Notes: generated by a model not told the origin, from the letters alone. Positions 642 through 16,981 are shown, counted from the first letter of the stretch. The stretch: 46,053 nucleotides of DNA from Pseudomonadota bacterium (GCA_900299055.1 OMII01000059.1:1-46053); one strand, 5' to 3'. Translations and numbers: made by a program.

Positions 642-1007
642 ATGAAAGTACCGGGATCAGAGGGAAATGAAGGGGTTCTAAAGCGCATCCAGGAAGGACG
701 CGTTGGTGAACAGTCAGCTACTCGCCGTGCAGCGACATCAAACGGGGTCGCGGACGGATTGTCTGGGGAGCTTCAGAAGACCCAGGTAGACACAATGAAG
801 TTCTCGTCGTTAGGCGCCGTGCTTCGCCAAGAGCTCGATCCGGCAAAGATGGCAGAAGAGCGTCGTGCTAAAATAGAGTCCCTTAAGGAGCGAATCCGAA
901 ACGGTTCGTATGCGCCACCGGTAGAGGGTATTGCTCAAGCCTTTGGCGAAGAGATCTCAACAGAGGTTATCTTTGGCGCGCGATTTATGACGGGTGAAGA
1001 GGGGTAA
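642..1007 (+). CDS. flgM: Anti-sigma-28 factor FlgM
   Basis: 121 aa. The C-terminal segment AKIESLKERIRNGSYAPPVEGIAQAF resembles the FlgM sigma-28-binding region. An AGGATGG RBS precedes the start. The position between flgJ and flgN fits. Confidence 0.7.
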   Translation: MKVPGSEGNEGVLKRIQEGRVGEQSATRRAATSNGVADGLSGELQKTQVDTMKFSSLGAVLRQELDPAKMAEERRAKIESLKERIRNGSYAPPVEGIAQAFGEEISTEVIFGARFMTGEEG

Positions 1008-1066
1008 CTCACCTTCCGATACTCGCAGTTCGATTGAAAACGTCACGATAGCCAGGTGTTTCTTAC

Positions 1067-1579
1067 ATGAAGCTCGAACCTAACGTTCTTAAAAACCTGG
1101 AAAGCGCGCTTACAGAAGAGCTGCGGCACTATCAGGAATATTTGCGGATATTAGACGAGGAACAGGAGCGTGTGGTAACGCTCAAAACGGATGAACTTGT
1201 TGAGTTCTCGGCCACACGATCTAAAATAATTGATCGCCTTTCACAGCTCCGGGACACGCGAGTTTCGATCGTTGCCTCAATAGTTGGCAGCGAATCGACC
1301 AAGTTAAGCGATTTTGTGGATACGCTTCCGGCGTCTACCGATAAAAATCGCCTATCCTCCCTTGTGGACAAAATTAAGAGTGCGGTTGAGACGGTAGATA
1401 GAAAGACCAAAGAGTTCAATCAGGTTCTCAATTACTCACTCGGACTTGTGAACGGCGAAATTTCCCTTCTGTGGTCTGCCTCCCAGACTGTAAGTCGGGT
1501 TTATAATGCCTTTGGCTCCGTTATAGAGGGTGCCCAGCCAGCACCCCAACGTGTTGGATCTCTTCTAGGAGAGGCGTAG
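1067..1579 (+). CDS. flgN: FlgN-like flagellar export chaperone
   Basis: 170-aa helical protein (LTEELRHYQEYLRILDEEQERVV...) immediately upstream of flgK, the usual flgN position. The call rests mainly on context. Confidence 0.5.
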   Translation: MKLEPNVLKNLESALTEELRHYQEYLRILDEEQERVVTLKTDELVEFSATRSKIIDRLSQLRDTRVSIVASIVGSESTKLSDFVDTLPASTDKNRLSSLVDKIKSAVETVDRKTKEFNQVLNYSLGLVNGEISLLWSASQTVSRVYNAFGSVIEGAQPAPQRVGSLLGEA

Positions 1580-1609
1580 ATCGCCCTCTATTCGCACGGC
1601 TGCTCATCC

Positions 1610-1625
1610 CGGCACACTCATTGCT
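1610..1625 (+). promoter_or_regulatory. Candidate sigma-54 (-24/-12) promoter for flgK-flgL and downstream genes
   Basis: The sequence cGGCACactcaTTGCt has exact GG-N10-GC spacing and matches TGGCAC-N5-TTGC at 9 of 10 fixed positions. It lies about 60 nt upstream of the flgK ATG. rpoN is encoded in the same window. Confidence 0.55.
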
Positions 1626-1685
1626 TAGTTACAAGAGGACCACCAGCTTCCGGCATATTTTGCCGAGCTGCAGAAGGCGCTCTCG

Positions 1686-3326
1686 ATGGCAAATTTCACA
1701 GCTAAGATCCTCGGCAACTCAGTTAGCGCCATGACGGCGTCGCAGGCCTTGCTGTCAAACGCCTCCAACAACATCGCCAACGTTAATACCCCCGGCTATT
1801 CACGTCGGGATATATCGATACAGACCAGAATTGATCCCGCCGCGGTTGATGGAATACTCCGTATTGGTAGCGGAGTACAACTCGGGGAGATCTCACGAGT
1901 CACAAACTCCTTCCTCGAGGACTCCCTGCGTAGGGCAGTGTCTCGACAAGGTGCGGCGACGGTGCGGAATGAATATCTTGCCCGAGTAGAAAACGTTTTT
2001 AGTCTCAGTGGTCCCACGATGACGGTGGGGTCGACTCTGAATGACTTCTTTTCTGCGGTTAACCAGCTTGGGGTAGACCCATCCAATTTAGATCTGCGCC
2101 TCAATGTTCTGCAGAAGGGAGAAGACCTAGTTGGTACAATCCGTTCGACGTTTCAAGAGATCGCTAATAGCCAGAACGAGCTCGATAAGCGTGTATCTAT
2201 GGAGGTTGGCTCAATTAACTCCATTACAAAAGAGGTTGCTCATCTAAACAGTGTGATAGCACAGCGAGAATCAGTAGGGGTAACAGCGACTGATGAGCGT
2301 GATCAGAGGGATACTGTGCTCTCGAAGTTAGCGGAAAAGATCTCGTTCAACATCGTAGAGACGCCAAATGGCATGGTCAATTGCGTATTGGAGAATGGGT
2401 TTCCACTGGTTAATCAGGAAACCTCGCGTGATCTAAGCGTCACAGCCACACCGACATTTGGGGGCGCTACCATGCCGCGATCGCTGTCCGATAGCGTGCT
2501 TTCGTATGTCGTATATAACTTTGGTTCAGCAGACGCCCCCTCCCACCTTGATCTTACTCAGATGATAAAAAATGGCGGGGGCTCTCTCGCAGGTGTGCTG
2601 CAAATGCGCGGCTACGCGGACCCATCCAATACATCGCCGTATGAAGCGGATGGAGATCTAGTCGCGCTGGCTACTCGAATTGAAGCCCTCACTCGGAACC
2701 TAATAACGGAAGTCAATCAAGTATATCGAGGTGGTGATGAGGATCCAGTTACTGCCGGAGTGCAACCCAGAGCAGGTGACTTGAATGGGAACACGCCAGA
2801 TGTATTCGGTCTATTCGATTTTGATTTCTCTGGGGTTAAAGACTCAGATGGAGATGGAGCGGCTACCGCAACCGATCTCGCAGCGACCGGCCTTCATACC
2901 TTCTCGAATCTGTTGAAATTAGGGATCTCTAGCCCAGATCAATTCGCTGCCGCTCGTGACTTAGACCCAACCCCCGGCAGCCTCGAGTTTGCGACAGGAG
3001 ACGGTTCTAATGCACAAGCTCTGGCAGGTCTACGAACCGACGCATTTTCGTACTCTCTTGGAGCACTGTCGTTTACCGGCACTTTTGATGAGCTGTACAA
3101 CTCGGCGGTAAGTACGGCTGGTAATATGAAGTCAGCAGCTCAGCTTGAGTCAGATGTAGCCAACGCAAGCTATATGACAGCGAGTAGTAAAAGAGACGAG
3201 TTCTCATCAGTGAATCTCGATGAAGAATTTGCGAATGTGATTAAATACCAAAAAGCCTTCCAAGCGTCCGCCCGGATGATCAAGACGGCAAGTGAGATAA
3301 TTGACGTGATCGTGAGCCTTATATGA
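1686..3326 (+). CDS. flgK: Flagellar hook-associated protein 1, FlgK
   Basis: 546 aa. The N-terminus SAMTASQALLSNASNNIANVNTPGYSRRD and the C-terminus EEFANVIKYQKAFQASARMIKTASEIIDVIVSL are FlgK signatures. Confidence 0.9.
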   Translation: MANFTAKILGNSVSAMTASQALLSNASNNIANVNTPGYSRRDISIQTRIDPAAVDGILRIGSGVQLGEISRVTNSFLEDSLRRAVSRQGAATVRNEYLARVENVFSLSGPTMTVGSTLNDFFSAVNQLGVDPSNLDLRLNVLQKGEDLVGTIRSTFQEIANSQNELDKRVSMEVGSINSITKEVAHLNSVIAQRESVGVTATDERDQRDTVLSKLAEKISFNIVETPNGMVNCVLENGFPLVNQETSRDLSVTATPTFGGATMPRSLSDSVLSYVVYNFGSADAPSHLDLTQMIKNGGGSLAGVLQMRGYADPSNTSPYEADGDLVALATRIEALTRNLITEVNQVYRGGDEDPVTAGVQPRAGDLNGNTPDVFGLFDFDFSGVKDSDGDGAATATDLAATGLHTFSNLLKLGISSPDQFAAARDLDPTPGSLEFATGDGSNAQALAGLRTDAFSYSLGALSFTGTFDELYNSAVSTAGNMKSAAQLESDVANASYMTASSKRDEFSSVNLDEEFANVIKYQKAFQASARMIKTASEIIDVIVSLI

Positions 3327-4309
3327 GACGCGTGTCAGAGAATCAAACTACTCGAAACTTAGTTTCGTATGCGCTGGAGAATAAGCGCCGAGTGGGAGAG
3401 TATTCAAAACAACTCACCACAGGTCTCAAAGTCGAAAAGCCGAGCGATTCGATTGACGCGGGGACAATCTCGCGTTACCAGCAGCAGATAGCAAAAATTG
3501 ATACGTATAATAGCACTATCGCCCAAGCAAAGAGCTTTTTGCAGTCCCAGGACGACATTGTCAGTCAAGCAAGTCAGCTCTTAGTGAGGGCAAATGAGAT
3601 TGCGCAACAGGGCGCAAACGAGACGTTGAGTGAGTTTTCTCGCTCGCAGCTCGCTGAAGAGGTATTTCAGATACGGGATCAGATGGCGAGTCTGGCCAAC
3701 TCTACCTTTCAGGGGAAATATGTTTATGGTGGCGTTGATGACGATGACGCTCCATATGATCTCCAGACCTATGCTGAGCCTGTAGATGGAGATGCTAATA
3801 AGCGCTATGTGTTCGATGCAGAGCCAGGTACCGACGTCAGCAAGACAGTGCGGGTCTCCGATGATATCAGTGTGACGCTCAACACTCCGGCGGATAAAGT
3901 TTTTGGTACCTCTATGGAGGCACTCGAGCGTTTATCCAGGGCGCTTGCGGGATATTCGACGAATCCAGCCAGTGGAACCCCCGATGGAACTGGCACTGCG
4001 TACACATTCCCAGATGACTTTCACACCCAAACATCCGATATAAAGGCGTGCATTGATCTTTTAAACTTTGCTCGCGATAAAGAGATGATCCCAGAGCGAG
4101 TCGCTTTAGGCGGACGTTTACGAAGAATTGAGACTGGCACAGCCCTACTTGAGCTGACCAAGAACTCGGCAAAAGAGGCGCTCAGTCGGCTGCAAGATGC
4201 GGACGAGGCGGAGGCGGCGTCCAACCTCCAGCAGGCCCAGACAGCCCTTCAGGCCTCATACTCCGTTACAGCAAAGGTTCTTCGGCTCTCGATCCTTGAT
4301 TACGTATAG
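3323..4309 (+). CDS. flgL: Flagellar hook-associated protein 3, FlgL
   Basis: 328 aa. It overlaps the flgK stop by ATGA. It has flagellin-like terminal helices; the C-terminus reads AEAASNLQQAQTALQASYSVTAKVLRLSILDYV. Confidence 0.8.
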   Translation: MRRVSENQTTRNLVSYALENKRRVGEYSKQLTTGLKVEKPSDSIDAGTISRYQQQIAKIDTYNSTIAQAKSFLQSQDDIVSQASQLLVRANEIAQQGANETLSEFSRSQLAEEVFQIRDQMASLANSTFQGKYVYGGVDDDDAPYDLQTYAEPVDGDANKRYVFDAEPGTDVSKTVRVSDDISVTLNTPADKVFGTSMEALERLSRALAGYSTNPASGTPDGTGTAYTFPDDFHTQTSDIKACIDLLNFARDKEMIPERVALGGRLRRIETGTALLELTKNSAKEALSRLQDADEAEAASNLQQAQTALQASYSVTAKVLRLSILDYV

Positions 4310-7470: not shown

Positions 7471-8133
7471 ATGCGAGACAATCCCTTTCGGCCTGGAACG
7501 ATGGAGCATTGGTTAGTTGGTAGACCAAACCAAGTGTCAGCGAAAATCATGTTGTGCTTAGTTACATTGCTAACGGCGACTCCATTTTTTTCGCTTCCTG
7601 GGACTTTCGTTTTGATGTCTATCATCGCTGTTCACGAGTATGGCCACATAGCGGCAATGCGAGTGTGCGGGATCCCCACTGCTGGGTTTTATTTTTTGCC
7701 GATGGCGGGTGGAATCGCGATTCCGCTGCGAGGATGGCGTTCGCTGGAGTCCACTGTGATGGTATCTCTCGGCGGCGCGGTTGTTGGCGCCATCGGAACG
7801 CTCGCGCTGATGGTGGTGTATCTAGTCTATCCAGATGTGATTCTGGGGGGGGTGATTTGGTTGTCGGCTTTGGGCAATCTTGTTGGTCTGATTCCCCTAT
7901 CGCGTTTGGACGGCGGAAGGTGTCTGCAAGCGGTCTTCTGCTCTCTCTGTGGAAGAGAGACTGCGACGTGCGACCCTGGTTCGGGATGGGAGGATCTCCT
8001 CGCCATCTTGAGTTATCTTGGGATCGTTGGGGCACTTGTGGCGATTATCGTCGATTCAACGCTCCTCAGTGATGCACTCGAGGCGTGGGTATACTGGCGG
8101 TTTTTGGTATATGGTGGATACTTTTCACCCTAG
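7471..8133 (+). CDS. Peptidase M50 (site-2 protease family), minimal membrane-core form
   Basis: 220 aa. It has HEYGH (HExxH) inside a hydrophobic segment and a second motif GNLVGLIPLSRLDGG (NxxPxxxLDG). It is hydrophobic throughout. A GAGAGGA RBS precedes the start. Confidence 0.8.
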   Translation: MRDNPFRPGTMEHWLVGRPNQVSAKIMLCLVTLLTATPFFSLPGTFVLMSIIAVHEYGHIAAMRVCGIPTAGFYFLPMAGGIAIPLRGWRSLESTVMVSLGGAVVGAIGTLALMVVYLVYPDVILGGVIWLSALGNLVGLIPLSRLDGGRCLQAVFCSLCGRETATCDPGSGWEDLLAILSYLGIVGALVAIIVDSTLLSDALEAWVYWRFLVYGGYFSP

Positions 8134-8157
8134 CTGCTTCGGCACTAGGGTTTTTTT
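8128..8157 (+). terminator. Rho-independent terminator of the M50 protease gene
   Basis: CCCTAG(C)TGC-TTCG-GCACTAGGG followed by TTTTTTT. That is a 9-bp stem with one bulge, a UUCG tetraloop and a T7 tract. The stop codon TAG (8131-8133) lies within the 5' arm. Confidence 0.8.
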
Positions 8158-8410
8158 GTGCCCAATACTTTCGGGGGAGACGACGGCGACAATGCAGCCA
8201 GTCGATAGCTTGCGTGTCTACACTGGCGGTTAATGCGCTCGGATGTGGGCCGCCCTTGGGGAGGTCCGTTGTCGTGGCGGCAGTAGCTCCTCTAATGGTC
8301 TAATATGACTAAGTAGTTAAGTCTGTTTTGGTGCTGCCAGCGAGCAAGGTCTATATCGCGAGACCTGGCCATCGCCGGAGATACCGTTTGATTAACGCTG
8401 GGCTTTTGTT

Positions 8411-9001
8411 ATGCTTCCAGCGTCTGTCGTACTTTTTGGAGCCTTAGCGGTCATGAAATACGTAAAGCACGCTGTATGTGTACTTGTTCTCGTTCTGATA
8501 ATGACTTCTTCGGAAGTTTTCGCGGCAACAAATCCGTGTTACGTGGCTCAGTCAAATGCAACGCGTGCCCAGCGTAATCTCGATTACGCGAGCCAGCAGT
8601 TGCTGAGAACACAAGATGCGTATTACGACGCACAGAATCGAGTGAGCTATCAACAGTCGCTCTATCAGGGTTACGTAGATCAGGCATACGCTAATGTGCA
8701 GGCTAGCCGCACGATCAATACCGGTTATGCTGGAGCTTGCGTGGTAAATTTTTTCTTCTTTCGACGTTCGTACGGATGTTTCTCTGGTGCGATATCTTCT
8801 TCTGCGGCTCGCCAGGCGAGCGCCAACTCGCAATATAACGCAGCGGTGGGCAGACGTAATGCGTACATTGTGTACGCGCAGGGCTACATCCGGCGTGCCG
8901 CTGACAGAGTGAATTACGCGCAGACACAAGTAAACAACTTCACCATCGCCAATGATCAGGCGCAGGTGCAATATCAGCAGTGTCTTAGTTCTAACGCCTA
9001 A
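8411..9001 (+). CDS. Secreted Q/Y/N/A-rich protein with two Cys-bracketed repeats (hypothetical)
   Basis: The likely true start is the ATG at 8453, giving MKYVKHAVCVLVLVLIMTSSEVFA|ATNP, a classic signal peptide. The mature part has four Cys that delimit segments of 68 and 69 aa, joined by VVNFFFFRRSYG. I recognise no family. Confidence 0.55.
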   Translation: MLPASVVLFGALAVMKYVKHAVCVLVLVLIMTSSEVFAATNPCYVAQSNATRAQRNLDYASQQLLRTQDAYYDAQNRVSYQQSLYQGYVDQAYANVQASRTINTGYAGACVVNFFFFRRSYGCFSGAISSSAARQASANSQYNAAVGRRNAYIVYAQGYIRRAADRVNYAQTQVNNFTIANDQAQVQYQQCLSSNA

Positions 9002-9010
9002 GGTTCTCCA

Positions 9011-10195
9011 CTACAGTCCCAGAGCGCTGGCTGCTTGATTGTACAGGTACAGCAAGCTCTCAATAGGGAGCTCCGCTCCGCGCAAGGTCGGAGCGTCTAG
9101 TTTATTTCGATTTGGATCTACCAAGCAAAGGTCAGGATCGGCGATGGGGGATTCTCCTTCGTAGTTACGCTCTAACAGGGTGCGGAGAGCCCAGTATCGT
9201 GATGCGTAGAGATCGTAAGCCTCGTGCTCGCTTCCAGCTTTGGATTCCATTTCGGTGGCACTTTGTTCCCCAGAGAGATGGGCTTCGCTGGTGACGATGT
9301 CTGAGCCGAAGAGAACGCGGCCTCTCCATCTCTCAAAGAAGTCTCTTAGTTCAAGCGGTGTATGTTTGCTTAGCTCACGAACGATCCATTTAGTAGCGCT
9401 ACAATCGAGGTAGAGATTTTGATGACGGCTGAGGAGTTTAGATAGGAACGGAAGATCTTCAGGGTAACCTCCCATGTGAGCGGCTATCCAGGGATTGGGA
9501 AAAAGGTCGAGCACTTCTTCGAGCGTTTCATATTGCTCGCATTTCGTACCGTATTTAGTTGAGTCGGAGTATTTTGTTTGGAACCACGTGTCGGGGTCTC
9601 CGATGTGCACCATAAACATCATCCCTAGGTCCGCCGCCGCGCGCATCGCCTCTTTACGCAGCGCAGAGTTGAGTCGAAGCCGGCTTGAAGCAAACGGCTC
9701 AGAAGTAACTTCGTATATTCGCGGCGCGTTCCAAAACTTAGCTATTCGAGTTCCCGCTCTTTTGAATGCCTGCAGATCTCGGATAAACCCCGGGCCGAAG
9801 GCCTGAAGTCTGTCGTTGTTACTGAAGTTTGGAATGGCAATGAATCGTACGCTGTCTCCGAGGATGTTCTGGACTGCTGGGATCTCGCTGAGGCTCGTCA
9901 TGGAGTATGTTCGAACGATGCCGTAGTGTTGAGCTGCCTGCGCGTATATCCTCGCCGCCCTCTCTCCGTGAATGTGTGAGTGAACATCGATAATACCGTC
10001 TTGTATCGGTGGAAAGGACTGACTCTCGAGGGCGTAGCGTAGGTTAAGGCGATTTGCGGGTTTCATAGGGGCCACCTGGTAGTATGCCAAAAACTGCAGT
10101 AGGGCGTCATTCCATATAGTGTGGAACGCCCAATCTAGCGATCGAACTCCGTTTTTCGGTAAAATAAGCGGAAGTTCTTGGTTAGCCAAGATCAT
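9011..10195 (-). CDS. Metal-dependent amidohydrolase (TIM-barrel, Amidohydro_2-like)
   Basis: 394 aa. It has IDVHSHIHG (HxH metal motif), then FMVHIGD, AAHMGG, LYLDCSA and VLFGSD, which is the typical strand-end pattern of amidohydrolase-superfamily enzymes. Confidence 0.7.
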   Translation of the reverse strand: MILANQELPLILPKNGVRSLDWAFHTIWNDALLQFLAYYQVAPMKPANRLNLRYALESQSFPPIQDGIIDVHSHIHGERAARIYAQAAQHYGIVRTYSMTSLSEIPAVQNILGDSVRFIAIPNFSNNDRLQAFGPGFIRDLQAFKRAGTRIAKFWNAPRIYEVTSEPFASSRLRLNSALRKEAMRAAADLGMMFMVHIGDPDTWFQTKYSDSTKYGTKCEQYETLEEVLDLFPNPWIAAHMGGYPEDLPFLSKLLSRHQNLYLDCSATKWIVRELSKHTPLELRDFFERWRGRVLFGSDIVTSEAHLSGEQSATEMESKAGSEHEAYDLYASRYWALRTLLERNYEGESPIADPDLCLVDPNRNKLDAPTLRGAELPIESLLYLYNQAASALGL

Positions 10196-10281
10196 AGGGG
10201 GTTGCTCCCGAAAAAGGGGGAGCCGGGTAGTTCTAAACTGGGTTATACTTTCCCAATGTCAATTGAACAGCAGGTGCGGAC

Positions 10282-11778
10282 ATGAAGCGACTCGACGTGG
10301 GACCTTCCCTCACATGGCCGACCGAGGCACTGCGAGCGAGGAGCTTAATAGGTGGTGAGTGGGTCTCTGGCTCTGCTAACACCACGACCGTAACTAGCCC
10401 GTACAACGGGCAATCCCTGGGAGAGCTCCACCACGCATCGTCGTCGGATGTAAGCCGAGCGGTAGAAAGCGCAGCCAGCGTATCGAAGGAGTGGCGGCTG
10501 GTTCCTATAAAGGAGCGAGCGTCGCTGCTTCTCGAATTTCGGAATCTTCTCGCGCGGGACATCGATCGCCTAAGCGTGAGCGCTGCCTTAGAGTCTGGAA
10601 AGACGTTCTCAGAAGCAAAAGCGGAGGTCCTAAAGGCGATAGAAGTCGTCGAGTTTGCCTCAAGTCTAGAAAATAGTGACCTTGGTGGAGCGATCGAAGT
10701 TAGCCGCGGAGTTTCGTGTGAATATCGGAGGGAGCCTCTTGGAGTAGTTGCAGGTATCACGCCATTCAATTTTCCGGCAATGGTCCCGATGTGGATGATA
10801 CCAATCGCACTAGCTCTGGGTAACGCGTTTATCCTAAAGCCCTCGGATAAAGTTCCACTGACCCCATGTATACTAGCCGAGCTTATTGCAGCGGCTGGGT
10901 TTCCTGCTGGAGTCTTTTCGATACTTCAGGGGGGACGCTCAGTCGTAGAGCAGTTAGTTGTAGATCCTCGAGTGCAAGCGGTCGGGTTTGTGGGCTCAAG
11001 TGCAGTCGCTCAGGCGGTATATGCGCAAGCTACATCGACGGGAAAGAGAGCTCTTTGTTTGGGAGGTGCTAAAAATCATCTAATTGTCGCTCCAGACGCG
11101 GACCCTGCAATCACCGTGGACGGCATTGTCGCGTCCTTTACCGGCTGTGCCGGTCAACGATGTATGGCGGCCAGTGTGCTCGTGGCGGTAGGCAATGTTG
11201 ATCACATTATAGACGCGGTCGTTGAGCGGGCATCTCAGATACTGCTTGGGAGAGACATGGGGGCACTTATCGACGCAGCGGCGGTTTCGCGTTTGTCAAA
11301 GGCCGTCGCGACAGCAGCGCGTGAAGGAGCGACCATTCGGCTTGATGGTAGGAATGTGGTTCCACCTACCGGCAGTGAGAAAGGAAACTGGTTTGGCCCG
11401 TCTATAATCGATAACGTGCGGCCTTCGATGGAGTGCTCCTGTGTGGAGTTGTTTGGGCCAGTTTTATCTATTGTACGAGTTCGTACTATTGACGACGCGC
11501 TTAAGCTGGAGCGTGAGAGTGCATACGGCAATGCTCTCTCAATTTTCACGACGAGTGGCTCGGTCGCTCGGCACGTAGCGGACCGTGCCACCTCCGGTAT
11601 GATCGGGATTAATGTTGGCGTTCCTGTTCCTCGCGAGCCCTTCTCGTTTGGAGGAACAAAGGACTCTAAGTTTGGTGTTGGAGATATAACGGGTTGGGGT
11701 GGAGTGGAGCTATGGTCGACTCGCAAAAAGATCACCACCAAGTGGTCGACCCAGAGCGATAAAAATTGGATGTCCTGA
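10282..11778 (+). CDS. mmsA: CoA-acylating (methyl)malonate-semialdehyde dehydrogenase
   Basis: 498 aa aldehyde dehydrogenase. It has FNFPAMVPMWMIPIALALGNAFILKPS and the catalytic-Cys context FTGCAGQRCMAASVLV, which is characteristic of the MMSDH subfamily. Confidence 0.85.
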   Translation: MKRLDVGPSLTWPTEALRARSLIGGEWVSGSANTTTVTSPYNGQSLGELHHASSSDVSRAVESAASVSKEWRLVPIKERASLLLEFRNLLARDIDRLSVSAALESGKTFSEAKAEVLKAIEVVEFASSLENSDLGGAIEVSRGVSCEYRREPLGVVAGITPFNFPAMVPMWMIPIALALGNAFILKPSDKVPLTPCILAELIAAAGFPAGVFSILQGGRSVVEQLVVDPRVQAVGFVGSSAVAQAVYAQATSTGKRALCLGGAKNHLIVAPDADPAITVDGIVASFTGCAGQRCMAASVLVAVGNVDHIIDAVVERASQILLGRDMGALIDAAAVSRLSKAVATAAREGATIRLDGRNVVPPTGSEKGNWFGPSIIDNVRPSMECSCVELFGPVLSIVRVRTIDDALKLERESAYGNALSIFTTSGSVARHVADRATSGMIGINVGVPVPREPFSFGGTKDSKFGVGDITGWGGVELWSTRKKITTKWSTQSDKNWMS

Positions 11779-11797
11779 GAGAATTTCGAGGAAGTGC

Positions 11798-13057
11798 ATG
11801 ACTGAGAAGAAGAGAGCAGTAAAGCCGATAGTACTAACATCACACCCATCGGCGCGAACGCCGGTCTCCTATCCGATTCAGTGGGGAGAGCGCGATCCTA
11901 AACGTAGAGGGCCAATTATCGGAACGCTCACCACACCGGAGCACCGCAATTGCATGGGCACTCACTCTGGAGCTTATTCGGTATATCGTGCGTTGGCAGT
12001 GGCCGCAGGCAGTCTTGATCCGCTTCATGTGCCGGATTTAACTAACACTGCGCCAGTAGATCGAATCGGCCCTTTTGATAGCTGGTACGAGCCTAAGCGA
12101 ATCGTATCGATGGATCCGTGGGGGGCTGATGTGGGAGAAGTCTTCCGCGATGAGATTAAGGCAGGTGTAAACATTCAGCCTACCATCGCTATAACTCGAG
12201 CTCATATCACGATGCCTGAGATTGTCGAGGAAGTACGACGCGGAGGTATTTCAGTTGATGGAGAGATAGTTGGTGCTAACGGAGACTGTAAGGTCACAAA
12301 AGCAGCCATAGAGCCAGTGTGGTTTCTTCCGGCGGTCGCTGAGCGGTTTGGCATCGCAGAGTCCGAGCTCAGGCGCGCACTGTTTGAGCATACGGGCGGT
12401 ATGTTTCCTGAGCTCATTACACGGTCAGATCTGCATGTGCTTCTGCCCCCAATCGGAGGACAGACTGTCTATTTCTTTGGAGAGGTAGCTTCGATTCCAG
12501 ACCTTACCAAGGAACTGACAATACGAATTCATGACGAATGCAACGGATCTGATGTGTTTGGGTCTGATATTTGCACCTGTCGACCATATTTGATTCACGG
12601 CATCGAGGAGTGTGTTAAAACGGCGCAGAGAGGTGGTTGCGGAGTCATTGTATATAATCGCAAAGAGGGGCGAGCGCTCGGAGAAGTGACGAAGTTTCTT
12701 GTCTACAACGCGCGTAAACGCCAAGAGGGAGGTGATAGAGCTGATATGTATTTTCACCGCACCGAGTGTATCGCAGGCGTGCAAGATATGCGTTTTCAAG
12801 AGCTCATGCCGGACGTGCTTCATTGGATGGGGATCAAGCGAATAGACCGCCTCGTGTCGATGAGTGACATGAAGTATAACGCGATCACGCGCTCTGGTAT
12901 TGAGGTTGTAGAGCGTGTTTCGATACCGGACGATCGTATCCCAGCGGATGCTCGTGTGGAAATGGATGCTAAGAAGGCAGCCGGATACTTTGCTGAGCAC
13001 GGGGCCCCTACTGAAGAAGATTTGAAGAAAACAAAAGGACGAGGACTTCTTGAGTAA
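11798..13057 (+). CDS. GTP cyclohydrolase II-like protein of the URC1 type
   Basis: I trimmed the start to the ATG at 11798, because the track ORF start at 11699 overlaps mmsA. 419 aa. It has IRIHDECNGSDVFGSDICTCRPYL (a GCH-II zinc motif variant) and a long N-terminal extension, the architecture I recall for yeast URC1 and its bacterial homologs. Confidence 0.75.
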   Translation: MTEKKRAVKPIVLTSHPSARTPVSYPIQWGERDPKRRGPIIGTLTTPEHRNCMGTHSGAYSVYRALAVAAGSLDPLHVPDLTNTAPVDRIGPFDSWYEPKRIVSMDPWGADVGEVFRDEIKAGVNIQPTIAITRAHITMPEIVEEVRRGGISVDGEIVGANGDCKVTKAAIEPVWFLPAVAERFGIAESELRRALFEHTGGMFPELITRSDLHVLLPPIGGQTVYFFGEVASIPDLTKELTIRIHDECNGSDVFGSDICTCRPYLIHGIEECVKTAQRGGCGVIVYNRKEGRALGEVTKFLVYNARKRQEGGDRADMYFHRTECIAGVQDMRFQELMPDVLHWMGIKRIDRLVSMSDMKYNAITRSGIEVVERVSIPDDRIPADARVEMDAKKAAGYFAEHGAPTEEDLKKTKGRGLLE

Positions 13058-13138
13058 GAAGTACTTACCATTCTCTGTGAGGACGCCAATCTTCACAGAA
13101 CCTAGGATAGTGTGCGTAAGGCAAGGGACGTATCGTAT

Positions 13139-13771
13139 ATGAAAAATCCGCAAGTAACAGTTATTTCGCATCCTCTTGTACAACATAAGCTGACTCTGAT
13201 GAGGATGGAGACGACACAAACCTCGGACTTTCGGCGACTTCTTCGAGAGGTGAGTATGCTTTTAGCCTACTAAGTAACGAGAGACCTCCCAGTCGTTATG
13301 ACCGAGATAAAGACGCCAATTCAAATGATGAAGGCGCCTATGATCGAGAAGAAAATTACACTCGTTTCGATTCTCAGGGCAGGGAATGGAATATTAGAGG
13401 GAATGCTAGAGTTGCTGCCATCGGCTCGGGTTGGTCATATCGGGTTGTACCGGGATCCACAGACCCTAACTCCAGTGGAATACTACTTCAAGATGCCGCC
13501 AGATATGTCACAGCGTGATGTGATCGTTGTGGATCCGATGCTGGCCACGGGGAACTCGGCGGCGGCAGCGCTTAGTCGTTTGAAGACTCAGAAGCCCCTA
13601 TCTCTCAAATTTGTCTGCTTAATCGCCTGCCCGGAGGGTGTGGAATTGCTCACCTCTGAGCATCCTGACGTGCCAATTTACACAGGAGCGATCGATGAGA
13701 GGCTTAATGAACATGGATACATAGTGCCAGGATTAGGGGACGCTGGAGATCGCATCTACGGCACCGTTTAA
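13139..13771 (+). pseudogene. upp: Uracil phosphoribosyltransferase interrupted by one in-frame TAA (13271-13273)
   Basis: The ATG at 13139 gives [44 protein letters not shown], then TAA. The same frame continues [13 protein letters not shown]...[10 protein letters not shown]...[17 protein letters not shown]. The whole 210-codon frame is colinear with E. coli Upp, and the stop sits where Upp has Glu (LLTY-E-ATADL). Confidence 0.85.
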
Positions 13772-13786
13772 TTCGGGTTTAGGAGT

Positions 13787-15520
13787 CTATAAGAGACATC
13801 GTTGTAAGGCTCGAGCACCGATTGATATCGACACTCTACCGACGGTGATGTTGATAATTGAAAGCACAGTTACTCCGGATGCTAAAAGCATTAGTGCCGC
13901 CATGTCATCACGGAATACAGATGGTAAAAGGTAGTACGCTCCAAACATAAGCGTCACAGGGACCATATTAATTGCCAGCAGTAAAACGCCCGTGGCCATA
14001 TACGCTAAGTTGCCGGTGTTGGTAGCTAGCTGGCCCGCGTGTTCCCAGTCAAATCGAGCAAATCGAGCCCCAAATCCGAGCCCAAGCGTGACAATTCCGT
14101 GTGATATGATGATACCGCTAACGGCAGATGCGATAATAACGCGGGGCTCTACTCCCATAGCGCATCCTCCAGCGGAGAATATTGCGAGAGAAACGATCAC
14201 GATAAGGGAGAACCAGCTTGTGTACTTTGCTCGAAGGATATCTCGAGGAGAAATCGGGGCGGATTGAATAACCCACAGGGAGTTTCCCTCAAGCGAGACT
14301 GACGGAAATACGAATCGAGACGAGATAGACAGAATAACCATCAAACCGAGAAGCACATTCAGTGCCGTCATAAGAACGTCCCACAACTGTAAAATTTCAA
14401 CCCCGACTCGCGTGGGGGGACTGATGTGGCTGAAGTTGTACGAGTAGAGGGCGCAAATCGTCAGAAGCATCACAAGTTGAAGAGTTTGAGTTAGCTCGCG
14501 AGAAAACGCGAAGATCTCCTTTGTAATGAGCGCTCGAGTCCCTCGTCGAGTCATCGCAAAGAGAACCCTGGCAACAGACCGCCCAAGACGACTATCGAGC
14601 TGTAGTGGCGAGCTAGAGACCTGTAGTTTTGTATGGGTTCTACGAAAGAGCTTCTTAAAAAATACTACAGTGATGACCCACGCTAAAGTGGTTATCCCAG
14701 CGCACGCCCCGATTGCCCATGTGGTGGGTGCAAGATTGCCTTGGGCGAGAGTTTCGATTGAGCGCGCTATCGAAGAAGTCGCTAGTAAGTACCATGGGGA
14801 TCCCGAGGAGAGGAGGGCAAGTACTGATGAGCTCTGAGTTGCTGAAGGCAGCAGGAGTTTAGCTCCATTGTTGATGATAGCGAAAAATAGGCCGATAGAG
14901 ACCGCGAATAAGAGGGCAAAAGCGTGCCTTCCTCCTCTGGCGGGAAGTAGAGAAGAGAAAAGAATAGCCGCTGTTGTACCAAATAAAACAGCGGGGGCCA
15001 AAAAAGCAAAAACAAGTATCGGAGAAATCACATAGTAGAGGACGTCCGCTGAAAGAGCTTCTCCAAAGCTGAGATAAAGAGGAATGCCAAATACAAATAG
15101 CATCCAAAAGAGAGAGAGAGTTATTTCCGCTACTTTGGTTAAGACGAGAGCTTCCTCAGACACTGGGCTCGCGAGGAGGAAATCAATGTCTTTAGAGGCA
15201 TAGAGAGCGCTCATGGCACTCACGCTAGCGGAGAGGAGTGTCATGATGAACATCGCGGCTAAGAGTGCAGCGATGATAGGTGAATAGGTTAGGTGGAAGT
15301 GTGAGAGCGGCTGAGATAGCTCTCTGAGCATCGTGGTGCAGCATGCGTACAGCCCGACTGTCATCATTACAGTTAGTAGTGCCGAGAAAAGCTCTTTACG
15401 AGGCAACCCATAGCGCGAACTCCATCGATTTTTTATTGAAAGGACGGGTGGTGTAAGAAGAGTAATAGCGGCCCGTGCGCGAAATTGCGATTGGTCGTTT
15501 TTAGACGTTTCGACTTCCAT
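13787..15520 (-). CDS. Large polytopic ABC-exporter permease (putative)
   Basis: 577 aa with many hydrophobic helices. It starts 6 nt downstream of the ABC ATPase gene on the same strand. I recognise no substrate-specific motif. Confidence 0.6.
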   Translation of the reverse strand: MEVETSKNDQSQFRARAAITLLTPPVLSIKNRWSSRYGLPRKELFSALLTVMMTVGLYACCTTMLRELSQPLSHFHLTYSPIIAALLAAMFIMTLLSASVSAMSALYASKDIDFLLASPVSEEALVLTKVAEITLSLFWMLFVFGIPLYLSFGEALSADVLYYVISPILVFAFLAPAVLFGTTAAILFSSLLPARGGRHAFALLFAVSIGLFFAIINNGAKLLLPSATQSSSVLALLSSGSPWYLLATSSIARSIETLAQGNLAPTTWAIGACAGITTLAWVITVVFFKKLFRRTHTKLQVSSSPLQLDSRLGRSVARVLFAMTRRGTRALITKEIFAFSRELTQTLQLVMLLTICALYSYNFSHISPPTRVGVEILQLWDVLMTALNVLLGLMVILSISSRFVFPSVSLEGNSLWVIQSAPISPRDILRAKYTSWFSLIVIVSLAIFSAGGCAMGVEPRVIIASAVSGIIISHGIVTLGLGFGARFARFDWEHAGQLATNTGNLAYMATGVLLLAINMVPVTLMFGAYYLLPSVFRDDMAALMLLASGVTVLSIINITVGRVSISIGARALQRCLL

Positions 15521-15526
15521 ACGTAC

Positions 15527-16261
15527 CTAGTGTTCAAACCGAGGAGTCGTAAGCTCGAGGAACATACCCTCAAGGTCCTCACTTGGCCGACCCGATATTT
15601 CGCGAATCTCGTCTAACGTTCCACTGGTGAGAATAGATCCTTTGTGGATGATAGCGAGATGATCGGCCAGTTCTTCGGCCACATCGAGTGAGTGTGTAGA
15701 CAAGAATACAGTGACACCACTCTTGGCATAGCGTTTGAGCGATTCCTTAAAATCATGAGCGCCATGCGGGTCAAGCCCAACCATAGGCTCGTCCACGACG
15801 AGTATCTGCGGTTGATGCACCATCGCGGCGCACATCGCGATTCTTTGCCGCATGCCATGAGAGTAGCTCTCAACGAGAGCGTCTTGCCATGGTCGCATGG
15901 AGTATTCGTCGAGCACTCGATCGATATTATGATCGATTCGAGACGCGGGTACTCGATAGAGGTCACAAATGAAGTATAAGAACTCTCGCCCTGTGAGTTT
16001 CGGGTAGATGTGTGGGCGATCCGGAACGTATCCAATGATCGCCTTTGCCTCGAGTGGGCTGCGGAAAAGGTCAAAGCCACCGACCGTTATGCTGCCCGAT
16101 GTCGGCTGGGTAATTCCTGTCATCATGCGGATGGTAGTAGTCTTGCCGGCCCCGTTGATACCGAGAAACGCAAAGATGCTCCCAGCTGGAACGCTGAGCG
16201 AGATGTTGTCCACCGCGAGAAAAGACCCAAAACGCTTTGATACTTGGGTTAGTTTGATCAT
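15527..16261 (-). CDS. ABC transporter ATP-binding protein (ABC-2/CcmA-like)
   Basis: 244 aa. It has Walker A GINGAGKTT, the signature region YSHGMRQR and Walker B ILVVDEP. Confidence 0.9.
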   Translation of the reverse strand: MIKLTQVSKRFGSFLAVDNISLSVPAGSIFAFLGINGAGKTTTIRMMTGITQPTSGSITVGGFDLFRSPLEAKAIIGYVPDRPHIYPKLTGREFLYFICDLYRVPASRIDHNIDRVLDEYSMRPWQDALVESYSHGMRQRIAMCAAMVHQPQILVVDEPMVGLDPHGAHDFKESLKRYAKSGVTVFLSTHSLDVAEELADHLAIIHKGSILTSGTLDEIREISGRPSEDLEGMFLELTTPRFEH

Positions 16262-16453
16262 GTTCTGACTGCTGGTGCTCGATTGCTCATTAGGCAGGAT
16301 TGGCGCTTCCCTTACGTAAGATGCTCGCTGAGGCGGTATGTATTCCGGATGAGTGGCGTCACAAGAGGTTGAAAACGCCTAGAATAATCAGCTACTTGTG
16401 CTAGTATTGTATGGGCAGGAGCGGCTAACTCCCTGTGCTCAAAAGGAAGCTGG

Positions 16454-16981
16454 ATGGAACGAGAAATCAGACTTGTGTTCATGGGGGTGTGCGGATGTGG
16501 AAAAACCACCCTGGCACGGAGAGTGGCGGCCTACCTAGGGTGCGGCGACATTATCGAAGCTGATGAATTTCACACCCCTGAGATGAAAAAAAAGATGGCG
16601 TCGGGCGTACCGCTTACCGACGAGGATCGTTGGCCCTGGCTAGAGCGACTTAATGAGGCGATGAGGCAGGTACGCCGACCATGGACAGTGGTAACGTGCT
16701 CAGCGCTACGAAAAGTGTACCGAGAAAAGCTGGCGTGTGGCCTCACTGAGTCAGTCATATTTATTCTTTTACGTGCCCCAAAGGAACTGATTAGAGAGCG
16801 AATGCTCCAGCGACAGCACGAGTATATGCCGGTCTCGCTCCTGGAAAGTCAGTTCGCGACCTTGGAGGCTCCTAGCCCCGATGAGTCTGTGATTGAAATC
16901 TCTGTCGAGGGTACAGAGGAGGAAAGCTTCAAGCTGCTTACGCGGGAGATTGAGCGGTTGTCGTGTCCGAGCGCTTTGTAG
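16454..16981 (+). CDS. gntK: Gluconokinase
   Basis: 175 aa. It has the P-loop FMGVCGCGKTT, then EADEFHTPEMKKKMASGVPLTDEDRWPWL, the gluconate-kinase family pattern. Confidence 0.8.
   Translation: MEREIRLVFMGVCGCGKTTLARRVAAYLGCGDIIEADEFHTPEMKKKMASGVPLTDEDRWPWLERLNEAMRQVRRPWTVVTCSALRKVYREKLACGLTESVIFILLRAPKELIRERMLQRQHEYMPVSLLESQFATLEAPSPDESVIEISVEGTEEESFKLLTREIERLSCPSAL

Follow-up and report, generated by a model that had tools for sequence, protein, structure and literature searches.

Pyrimidines are known to be broken down by four routes, and the URC pathway is the one about which least is understood. What do bacteria that are unable to use urea gain from it, carbon or nitrogen? This question is raised by a locus in a 46,053-nt stretch of DNA from a Pseudomonadota bacterium (GCA_900299055.1, OMII01000059.1:1-46053; the whole stretch is called the window hereafter). 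At positions 9011-13771, a gene for a metal amidohydrolase lies divergent to a run of three genes: mmsA, a gene for a 419-aa cyclohydrolase, and upp, which encodes uracil phosphoribosyltransferase (UPRTase). An earlier reading made from the sequence alone (the sequence-only reading) had read these four genes as a possible self-contained URC-type route of uracil degradation. Our analysis indicates that 10282-13771 is very probably a three-gene, URC4-less derivative (mmsA-urcA(URC1)-upp) of a URC module with the composition mmsA-URC1-URC4-upp. The four-gene module extends the URC1-URC4-upp operon of bacteria, and the window operon is a reduced variant of this known, widespread operon, not a new pathway. 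Of the sequence-only reading, the URC-type cluster and its mmsA link stood, whereas the membership of the amidohydrolase and the self-contained route did not. The features of the module in the window are as follows; an ORF check returned the ORF positions and the two intergenic distances that had been given before.

10282-11778, plus strand: mmsA, the first gene of the module, for a predicted CoA-acylating malonate/methylmalonate-semialdehyde dehydrogenase (MMSDH; TIGR01722)
11798-13057, plus strand: gene for the URC1/UrcA-family cyclohydrolase (419 aa), with a GTP_CH_N domain and a zinc GTP-cyclohydrolase-II core
13058-13138, no strand: spacer of 81 nt, the site of URC4 (DUF1688, about 1.25 kb) in relatives
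13139-13771, plus strand: upp, uracil phosphoribosyltransferase (210 codons; PF14681), with an ORF that is interrupted in this assembly
13271-13273, plus strand: in-frame TAA at upp codon 45, which is GAA (Glu) in all relatives

The stop codon of mmsA is separated by 19 nt from the ORF of the 419-aa protein, whose own stop codon is followed after 81 nt by the ATG of upp at 13139. The window belongs to a metagenome-assembled genome (MAG; G000) that is 96.7% complete, and its source genus appears to be a member of Bdellovibrionota. For comparison with other species, one genome per species was surveyed, which gave at least about 600 URC1 loci; the best 80 were analysed. These 80 species span Cyanobacteriota, Myxococcota, Bdellovibrionota, Pseudomonadota, Actinomycetota, and Planctomycetota.

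The sequence-only reading had recognised in the 419-aa protein a GTP-cyclohydrolase-II core with a variant motif and an N-terminal extension, and had proposed that it is URC1-like. Profile searches bore out both points. The protein matched PF12471 (GTP_CH_N) with 266.7 bits at residues 43-231 of the long ORF and PF00925 with 59.4 bits, and it contains the motif HDECNGSDVFGSDICTC, which is invariant throughout the family. Fungal URC1 has the same architecture of PF12471 and PF00925. The putative link to fungal URC1/urg1 also draws on PMC3869809 and PMC2174524. On the family model NF005536 it scored 736.8 bits against a cut-off of 403. Its closest matches in the PDB, with an E value of 1.5e-179 over residues 11-417, were the bacterial proteins 7EEV and 7EJ3 (423-425 aa), which we take to be the UTP cyclohydrolase structures of Zhang et al. 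By eye, about 65-70% of the residues are identical to the solved protein, and the two domains and the zinc triad are shared. Alignment with RibA placed Cys248, Cys259, and Cys261 at the zinc ligands Cys54, Cys65, and Cys67. A set of 89 homologues gave 162 alignment columns with at least 97% conservation, and the window protein is intact at all of them. The statement that the chemistry of this family is undefined is dated, to judge from the citation of a structural and biochemical study of a bacterial UTP cyclohydrolase for the URC pathway (Zhang et al., ACS Catal 2021, cited in PMC12507026).

Could this protein instead be a RibA paralogue of the riboflavin pathway whose neighbours are coincidental? 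The PF00925 core and the cysteine triad are retained, the fold of the catalytic core is that of E. coli RibA (2BZ0), and more than 8000 candidates of the URC1 family, all of them, are labelled 'GTP cyclohydrolase II' in public annotation. However, the protein failed the RibA model TIGR00505 by far (55.9 bits against a cut-off of 205.85). RibA structures matched merely at the E 1e-9 level (6e-9 for 2BZ0), in contrast to the E 1e-179 level of 7EEV and 7EJ3. Unlike E. coli RibA, it carries an additional N-terminal domain of 190 residues and lies in another genomic context, and the synteny of URC1 with URC4 and upp extends across six phyla. Furthermore, a separate, bona fide RibBA is encoded on contig C234 of G000 and passes the cut-offs of both TIGR00505 (231.1 bits) and TIGR00506. 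A riboflavin role therefore has next to no probability in our estimate, and from its sequence the 419-aa protein is assigned to the URC1/UrcA (UTP cyclohydrolase) family, not to RibA.

G000 holds further proteins of the cyclohydrolase type. On contig C100 (about 800-4100; L002, L003, L005, L007), a pair of neighbouring genes codes for proteins of 525 aa and 562 aa, whose architecture is unusual in that each has two separate PF00925 matches. They passed the RibA-subfamily model NF001591 (167 and 164 bits; cut-off, 148) and failed the TIGR00505 equivalog. Contig C97 (L004: 838-2001) encodes another RibBA-like protein, which has 387 aa and scores of 111 bits for ribB and 59.5 bits for ribA, both below the cut-offs; its ribA match is confined to the first 88 of 191 model positions. 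This protein is perhaps a paralogue that has degenerated or been repurposed.

Next to URC1 in other species we most often found URC4/DUF1688 (73 of the 80) and upp (59 of the 80), and an MMSDH-like gene lies directly upstream in 14, chiefly members of Bdellovibrionota and Myxococcota. Other recurrent neighbours, judged by sequence, are nucleoside-type ABC transporter-like genes. The linkage of URC1 to upp is thus conserved, and that of MMSDH to URC1 was present, besides the 14 species, in every member of the genus examined. Conservation of URC1 and URC4 and their clustering with UPRT genes have been described for many fungi and bacteria (PMC3869809). In comparison with the bacterial URC1-URC4-upp operons (Andersen et al., J Mol Biol 2008, as described in PMC3869809), the window has the same gene order with upp downstream, whereas it has no URC4 in the operon or genome, an MMSDH gene before URC1, and, in this assembly, a stop codon in upp. 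A closer counterpart is provided by the mmsA-URC1-URC4-upp(-udk) operons of certain Bdellovibrionota and Myxococcota (L050, L056, L058, L083, L096), in which the four-gene order including mmsA is the same as the ancestral state of the genus; unlike these, the subclade of the window has URC4 deleted and no udk after upp.

MmsA itself passed TIGR01722 narrowly (451.5 bits against 448.5), but all of the top ten matches in a sequence search of the PDB were MMSDH, with E values from 4e-106 to 2e-91, and it is the sole MMSDH above the cut-off in G000. Its translation contains GQRCMA, presumably the motif that bears the catalytic Cys of MMSDH. Within the genus, about 20 of 24 congeners have a full-length URC1; 16 other sampled families of the order yielded none. 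The order in the congeners is the amidohydrolase gene (divergent), followed by mmsA-URC1-URC4(DUF1688)-upp. Wide-range mapping of ten congener loci revealed mmsA-URC1 and upp in this order in all ten, with URC4 between them in nine; the tenth is G002. In four congeners (G004, G006, G012, G050), all four genes of the module are absent as one block, and an ABC permease gene lies close to the amidohydrolase gene (26 nt in G004). These four genomes also have no MMSDH above the cut-off, whereas the URC-positive genomes have one. Therefore, mmsA belongs to the module and is gained or lost with URC1 as a block, and the ancestral unit in the genus is mmsA-URC1-URC4-upp. The four genomes without exactly these genes delimit the functional module and tie an acetyl-CoA-forming dehydrogenase to it.

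The ancestral unit is no longer complete in the window. Ten congeners have a DUF1688 gene (460 bits) between URC1 and upp. In the window, four assemblies of the same species, a 95%-identical species, G002, and G003, the two genes are separated by a gap of 52-83 nt without URC4. Neither an HMM search with PF07958, which gave 446-460 bits for congeners, nor tblastn detected DUF1688 in G000. No URC4 remnant was recognised in the 81-nt spacer, and the operon has no inserted gene that could be a substitute. Phylogenetically, a single clade (support, 99/95) unites the sequences without URC4; it lies within the genus clade as sister to the URC4-positive G022, so that the simplest reading is a single loss of URC4 in the forebear of the subclade to which the window belongs. 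The URC4-less arrangement has been maintained in at least four species-level lineages. It follows from this long survival of the subclade without URC4 that the URC4 step is either dispensable or replaceable.

What the lost step may be is suggested by the structure model of a congener URC4 (AlphaFold2, mean pLDDT 91.9). Its fold matched solely Qng1/DUF2419 (E 6e-10; TM score, 0.61-0.82), including the complex of Qng1 with queuosine 5'-monophosphate; the next match had an E value of 0.6, and the URC4 profile gave no match by sequence in the PDB. Because the modelled fold resembles that of the queuosine-5'-phosphate N-glycosylase Qng1, the lost step might be the N-glycosidic cleavage of ribosylurea 5'-phosphate.

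Two other genomes are worth mentioning with regard to DUF1688. G002 has a second, divergent DUF1688 gene on another contig (L123; contig C212: 1-6345; 298 bits), outside the URC operon and directly after a gene for a PfkB-family kinase; a second PfkB kinase gene and genes for NT5C-like nucleotidase and OMP decarboxylase-like proteins lie nearby. The matching site in G000 is empty. In view of these neighbours, DUF1688 proteins may act on other ribonucleotide-like substrates. The contamination of G002 is 7%, and the ownership of contig C212 is uncertain. In an alphaproteobacterial MAG (G051, locus L108), URC1 (7983-9257) and upp (from about 9263) form an independent pair, and no DUF1688 was found in the 4.2-Mb genome, which makes it a second case of a URC4-less operon. 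The neighbouring OmpA, MFS, and LolA genes are uninformative on a URC4 substitute.

The genes left after the loss have been well preserved. In the comparison of G000 with G002, synonymous sites have reached saturation (pS about 0.8), whereas the difference at non-synonymous sites amounts to 0.054 in URC1, 0.064 in upp, and 0.138 in mmsA. URC1 is 90% identical between the two, and every one of the 162 conserved columns is intact in the three URC1 sequences from URC4-less operons. We conclude that URC1, mmsA, and upp have been under strong purifying selection since the loss of URC4. It follows that the truncated route most likely still works, although we rate the chance that it is functional only slightly better than even. 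As an overall explanation, a URC4-less derivative with a route that still functions is likely.

We infer the substrates and products of every step of this route. Upp would convert uracil and PRPP to UMP, and housekeeping kinases would raise UMP to UTP. The zinc cyclohydrolase UrcA would then release pyrophosphate and open the uracil ring hydrolytically; the carbons C4-C6 would leave as malonic semialdehyde, which MmsA would oxidise to acetyl-CoA and CO2 in place of the yeast URC8 reductase. The remainder of the molecule would be ribosylurea 5'-phosphate. In URC4-bearing relatives, URC4 is predicted to split it into ribose 5-phosphate and urea; in the window lineage, it may be discarded, or cleaved spontaneously or by another enzyme. 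The truncated route would most likely still serve as a means of taking carbon from uracil nucleotides.

The yeast pathway, which is outlined in PMC7530994, is the obvious standard for this scheme. In S. pombe, urg1, urg2, and urg3 are clustered and induced by uracil (PMC2174524). In common with the URC system of Lachancea kluyveri (URC1-URC6, URC8) and with urg1-urg2-urg3, the window route would form the nucleotide by UPRTase, open the ring with a GCH-II-like enzyme, and release a C3 unit and a ribosylurea moiety. On the other hand, yeast reduces the C3 unit to 3-hydroxypropionate by URC8, whereas in the window oxidation to acetyl-CoA by MmsA is predicted. Yeast also recovers nitrogen via URC4 and urea amidolyase (URC3,5), neither of which is detectable in the window genome.

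This last difference bears on the question of carbon or nitrogen. Neither a urease alpha subunit nor an above-cut-off urea carboxylase was found in G000 and 34 congeners, allophanate hydrolase not having been searched separately. Since no urease or urea amidolyase could be recognised in the genus, its members probably do not profit from the pathway through urea nitrogen, and the MmsA link points to a gain of carbon. The sequence-only reading had proposed to search the genome for URC4, urea amidolyase, or urease, and none of them turned up in G000. This goes against a self-contained route: URC4/DUF1688, present in the operons of most congeners and of 73 of the 80 species, was not detected, no urease or urea carboxylase was found, and the assembly's only upp has a stop codon. 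As for alternative pathways, no marker of the Rut or reductive Pyd pathway was found in G000 (no RutA, and no dihydropyrimidinase above the cut-off).

One tentative idea, to which we give somewhat less than an even chance, is that URC1/UrcA and MmsA alone form a working, selected short-cut that turns the C3 unit of uridine nucleotides into acetyl-CoA, with ribosylurea 5'-phosphate discarded. The URC1-upp pair of L108/G051 hints that the reduced form recurs. If such a short-cut exists, URC4 is dispensable, and the URC route in urease-less Bdellovibrionota serves carbon and energy or control of the nucleotide pool, not nitrogen. In any case, the genus offers natural experiments on the URC pathway, though no new route is found here; the boundary of the module, the long survival without URC4, and the predicted URC4 reaction are by-products of the comparison.

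The stop codon in upp needs a separate account. The gene matched PF14681 with 245 bits across one internal TAA (LLAY*VTRDL in translation), it is the sole upp in G000, and the longest clean ORF within it covers just 13298-13771. We compared it with four independent assemblies of the same species, which are 99.5-99.8% identical in nucleotides over 5.8-9.3 kb. Position 13271 is G in all four, giving the codon GAA and an intact upp, and in one of them (L036) the base of the TAA is the sole difference inside upp. G002 and the 95%-identical species likewise have Glu at codon 45. Across 9.3 kb aligned without gaps to L034-L036, the window has 17 private sites, which are mostly synonymous and therefore indicate that the window is genuinely a distinct strain. 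The TAA is either a recent mutation of this strain or a single consensus error. Recoding of the stop codon was rejected, as the assemblies of the same species read GAA there. A private Asp434 in MmsA was considered as an additional damaging mutation and was likewise rejected, Asp being common at this position in relatives.

Several points weigh against the reading of a functional, URC4-less route. With upp broken in this assembly, the route is closed to uracil as such, barring an error at the TAA; it could still be fed by uridine or by UMP from nucleotides, and G000 has a Udk-like gene, which scored 171.5 bits, below the cut-off of 220.3. The choice of UTP as the substrate and the assignment of the products draw on a paper's title and on yeast genetics. 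Without URC4, one ribose phosphate would be spent per uracil with zero yield of nitrogen, which is an odd economy. A URC4 gene could, strictly speaking, lie within the unassembled 3% of the MAG. The conservation of upp could reflect salvage, as it is the genome's only upp, and that of mmsA could reflect another substrate. Lastly, beyond the tight spacing, co-transcription is not backed by any promoter, terminator, or RNA motif: scans of 8000-16500 for promoters, terminators, and Rfam families gave no match above chance.

These points lead to the rival explanation that the cluster is a decaying remnant: the pathway would have died with the loss of URC4, the nonsense codon in upp would be the next step of erosion, and the genes would seem intact merely because upp and mmsA have other jobs. 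The failure to find URC4 and a urea-using enzyme in G000 and the stop codon in its only upp would fit such decay. However, we know of no second role for URC1, which nevertheless has remained 90% identical between G000 and G002 at saturated synonymous sites and has kept every one of the family-conserved columns. The persistence of the URC4-less arrangement in at least four species-level lineages and the absence of the TAA from the four assemblies of the same species also speak against progressive erosion. An independent job of mmsA in the genus is opposed by the confinement of above-cut-off mmsA to URC-positive congeners. Decay is therefore unlikely in our view, and the reading of a URC4-less derivative still under selection is retained.

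A different challenge concerns the limits of the cluster. The sequence-only reading had the amidohydrolase complete the group; as a full alternative, this enzyme would act in the pathway, hydrolyse the ureide or ribosylurea, and so replace URC4. Its gene neighbours mmsA in divergent orientation, both in the window and in the majority of URC-positive congeners, its set of metal-binding His and Asp residues is intact (Asp27, His29, His31, His154, His197, and Asp256 are invariant), and no substrate is assigned to it by sequence or fold matches. But in most congeners it coexists with URC4, hence it is no replacement there. The four congeners that lack the URC block still have it, with the ABC permease gene immediately next to it, and it was not found in the URC-positive G018 (97% complete), G019, and G022. 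Homologues at 56-58% identity lie in unrelated neighbourhoods, and the copy of one relative heads a run of genes for 4-hydroxyphenylpyruvate dioxygenase (HPPD) and a fumarylacetoacetase-family protein. Among the 80 URC1 loci, the amidohydrolase was present at three, all of the window's own genus, and absent from 77. We regard its participation as very improbable. With its distribution in the genus uncoupled from URC, the amidohydrolase is a neighbour in the chromosomal backbone and not a member of the module, which leaves mmsA-URC1-upp as the URC4-less unit in the window.

The amidohydrolase gene was delimited as follows.

9011-10195, minus strand: ORF of an Amidohydro_2-type metal hydrolase, with the probable gene at 9011-10066 (start at Met44)

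The protein matched PF04909 with 43.4 bits. Its homologues are about 352 aa long and cover residues 44-394 of the ORF; from this length, the true start is probably Met44, at 10066. The AlphaFold2 model (pLDDT 92) is a TIM barrel whose best fold match in the PDB, LigI-like 4I6K, is weak (E 5e-7), and a sequence search of the PDB gave no match. The non-synonymous difference of the gene between G000 and G002 is 0.147. The subfamily is large, with at least 2696 matches; the best 120 of them are all at least 54% identical, and nearly all are unnamed. In the relative mentioned above (L120: 6931-11171), genes for HPPD, a fumarylacetoacetase-family protein, and a 305-aa protein come after the amidohydrolase gene on the same strand. 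Such a neighbourhood is a hint that the enzyme may take part in the breakdown of aromatic compounds or tyrosine.

On the other side of the module, an ABC_tran_2 permease and ATPase gene pair (13787-16261) adjoins upp in the window. Its position is constant in congeners with or without the URC block, and therefore the pair is part of the backbone and not the module's uracil transporter.

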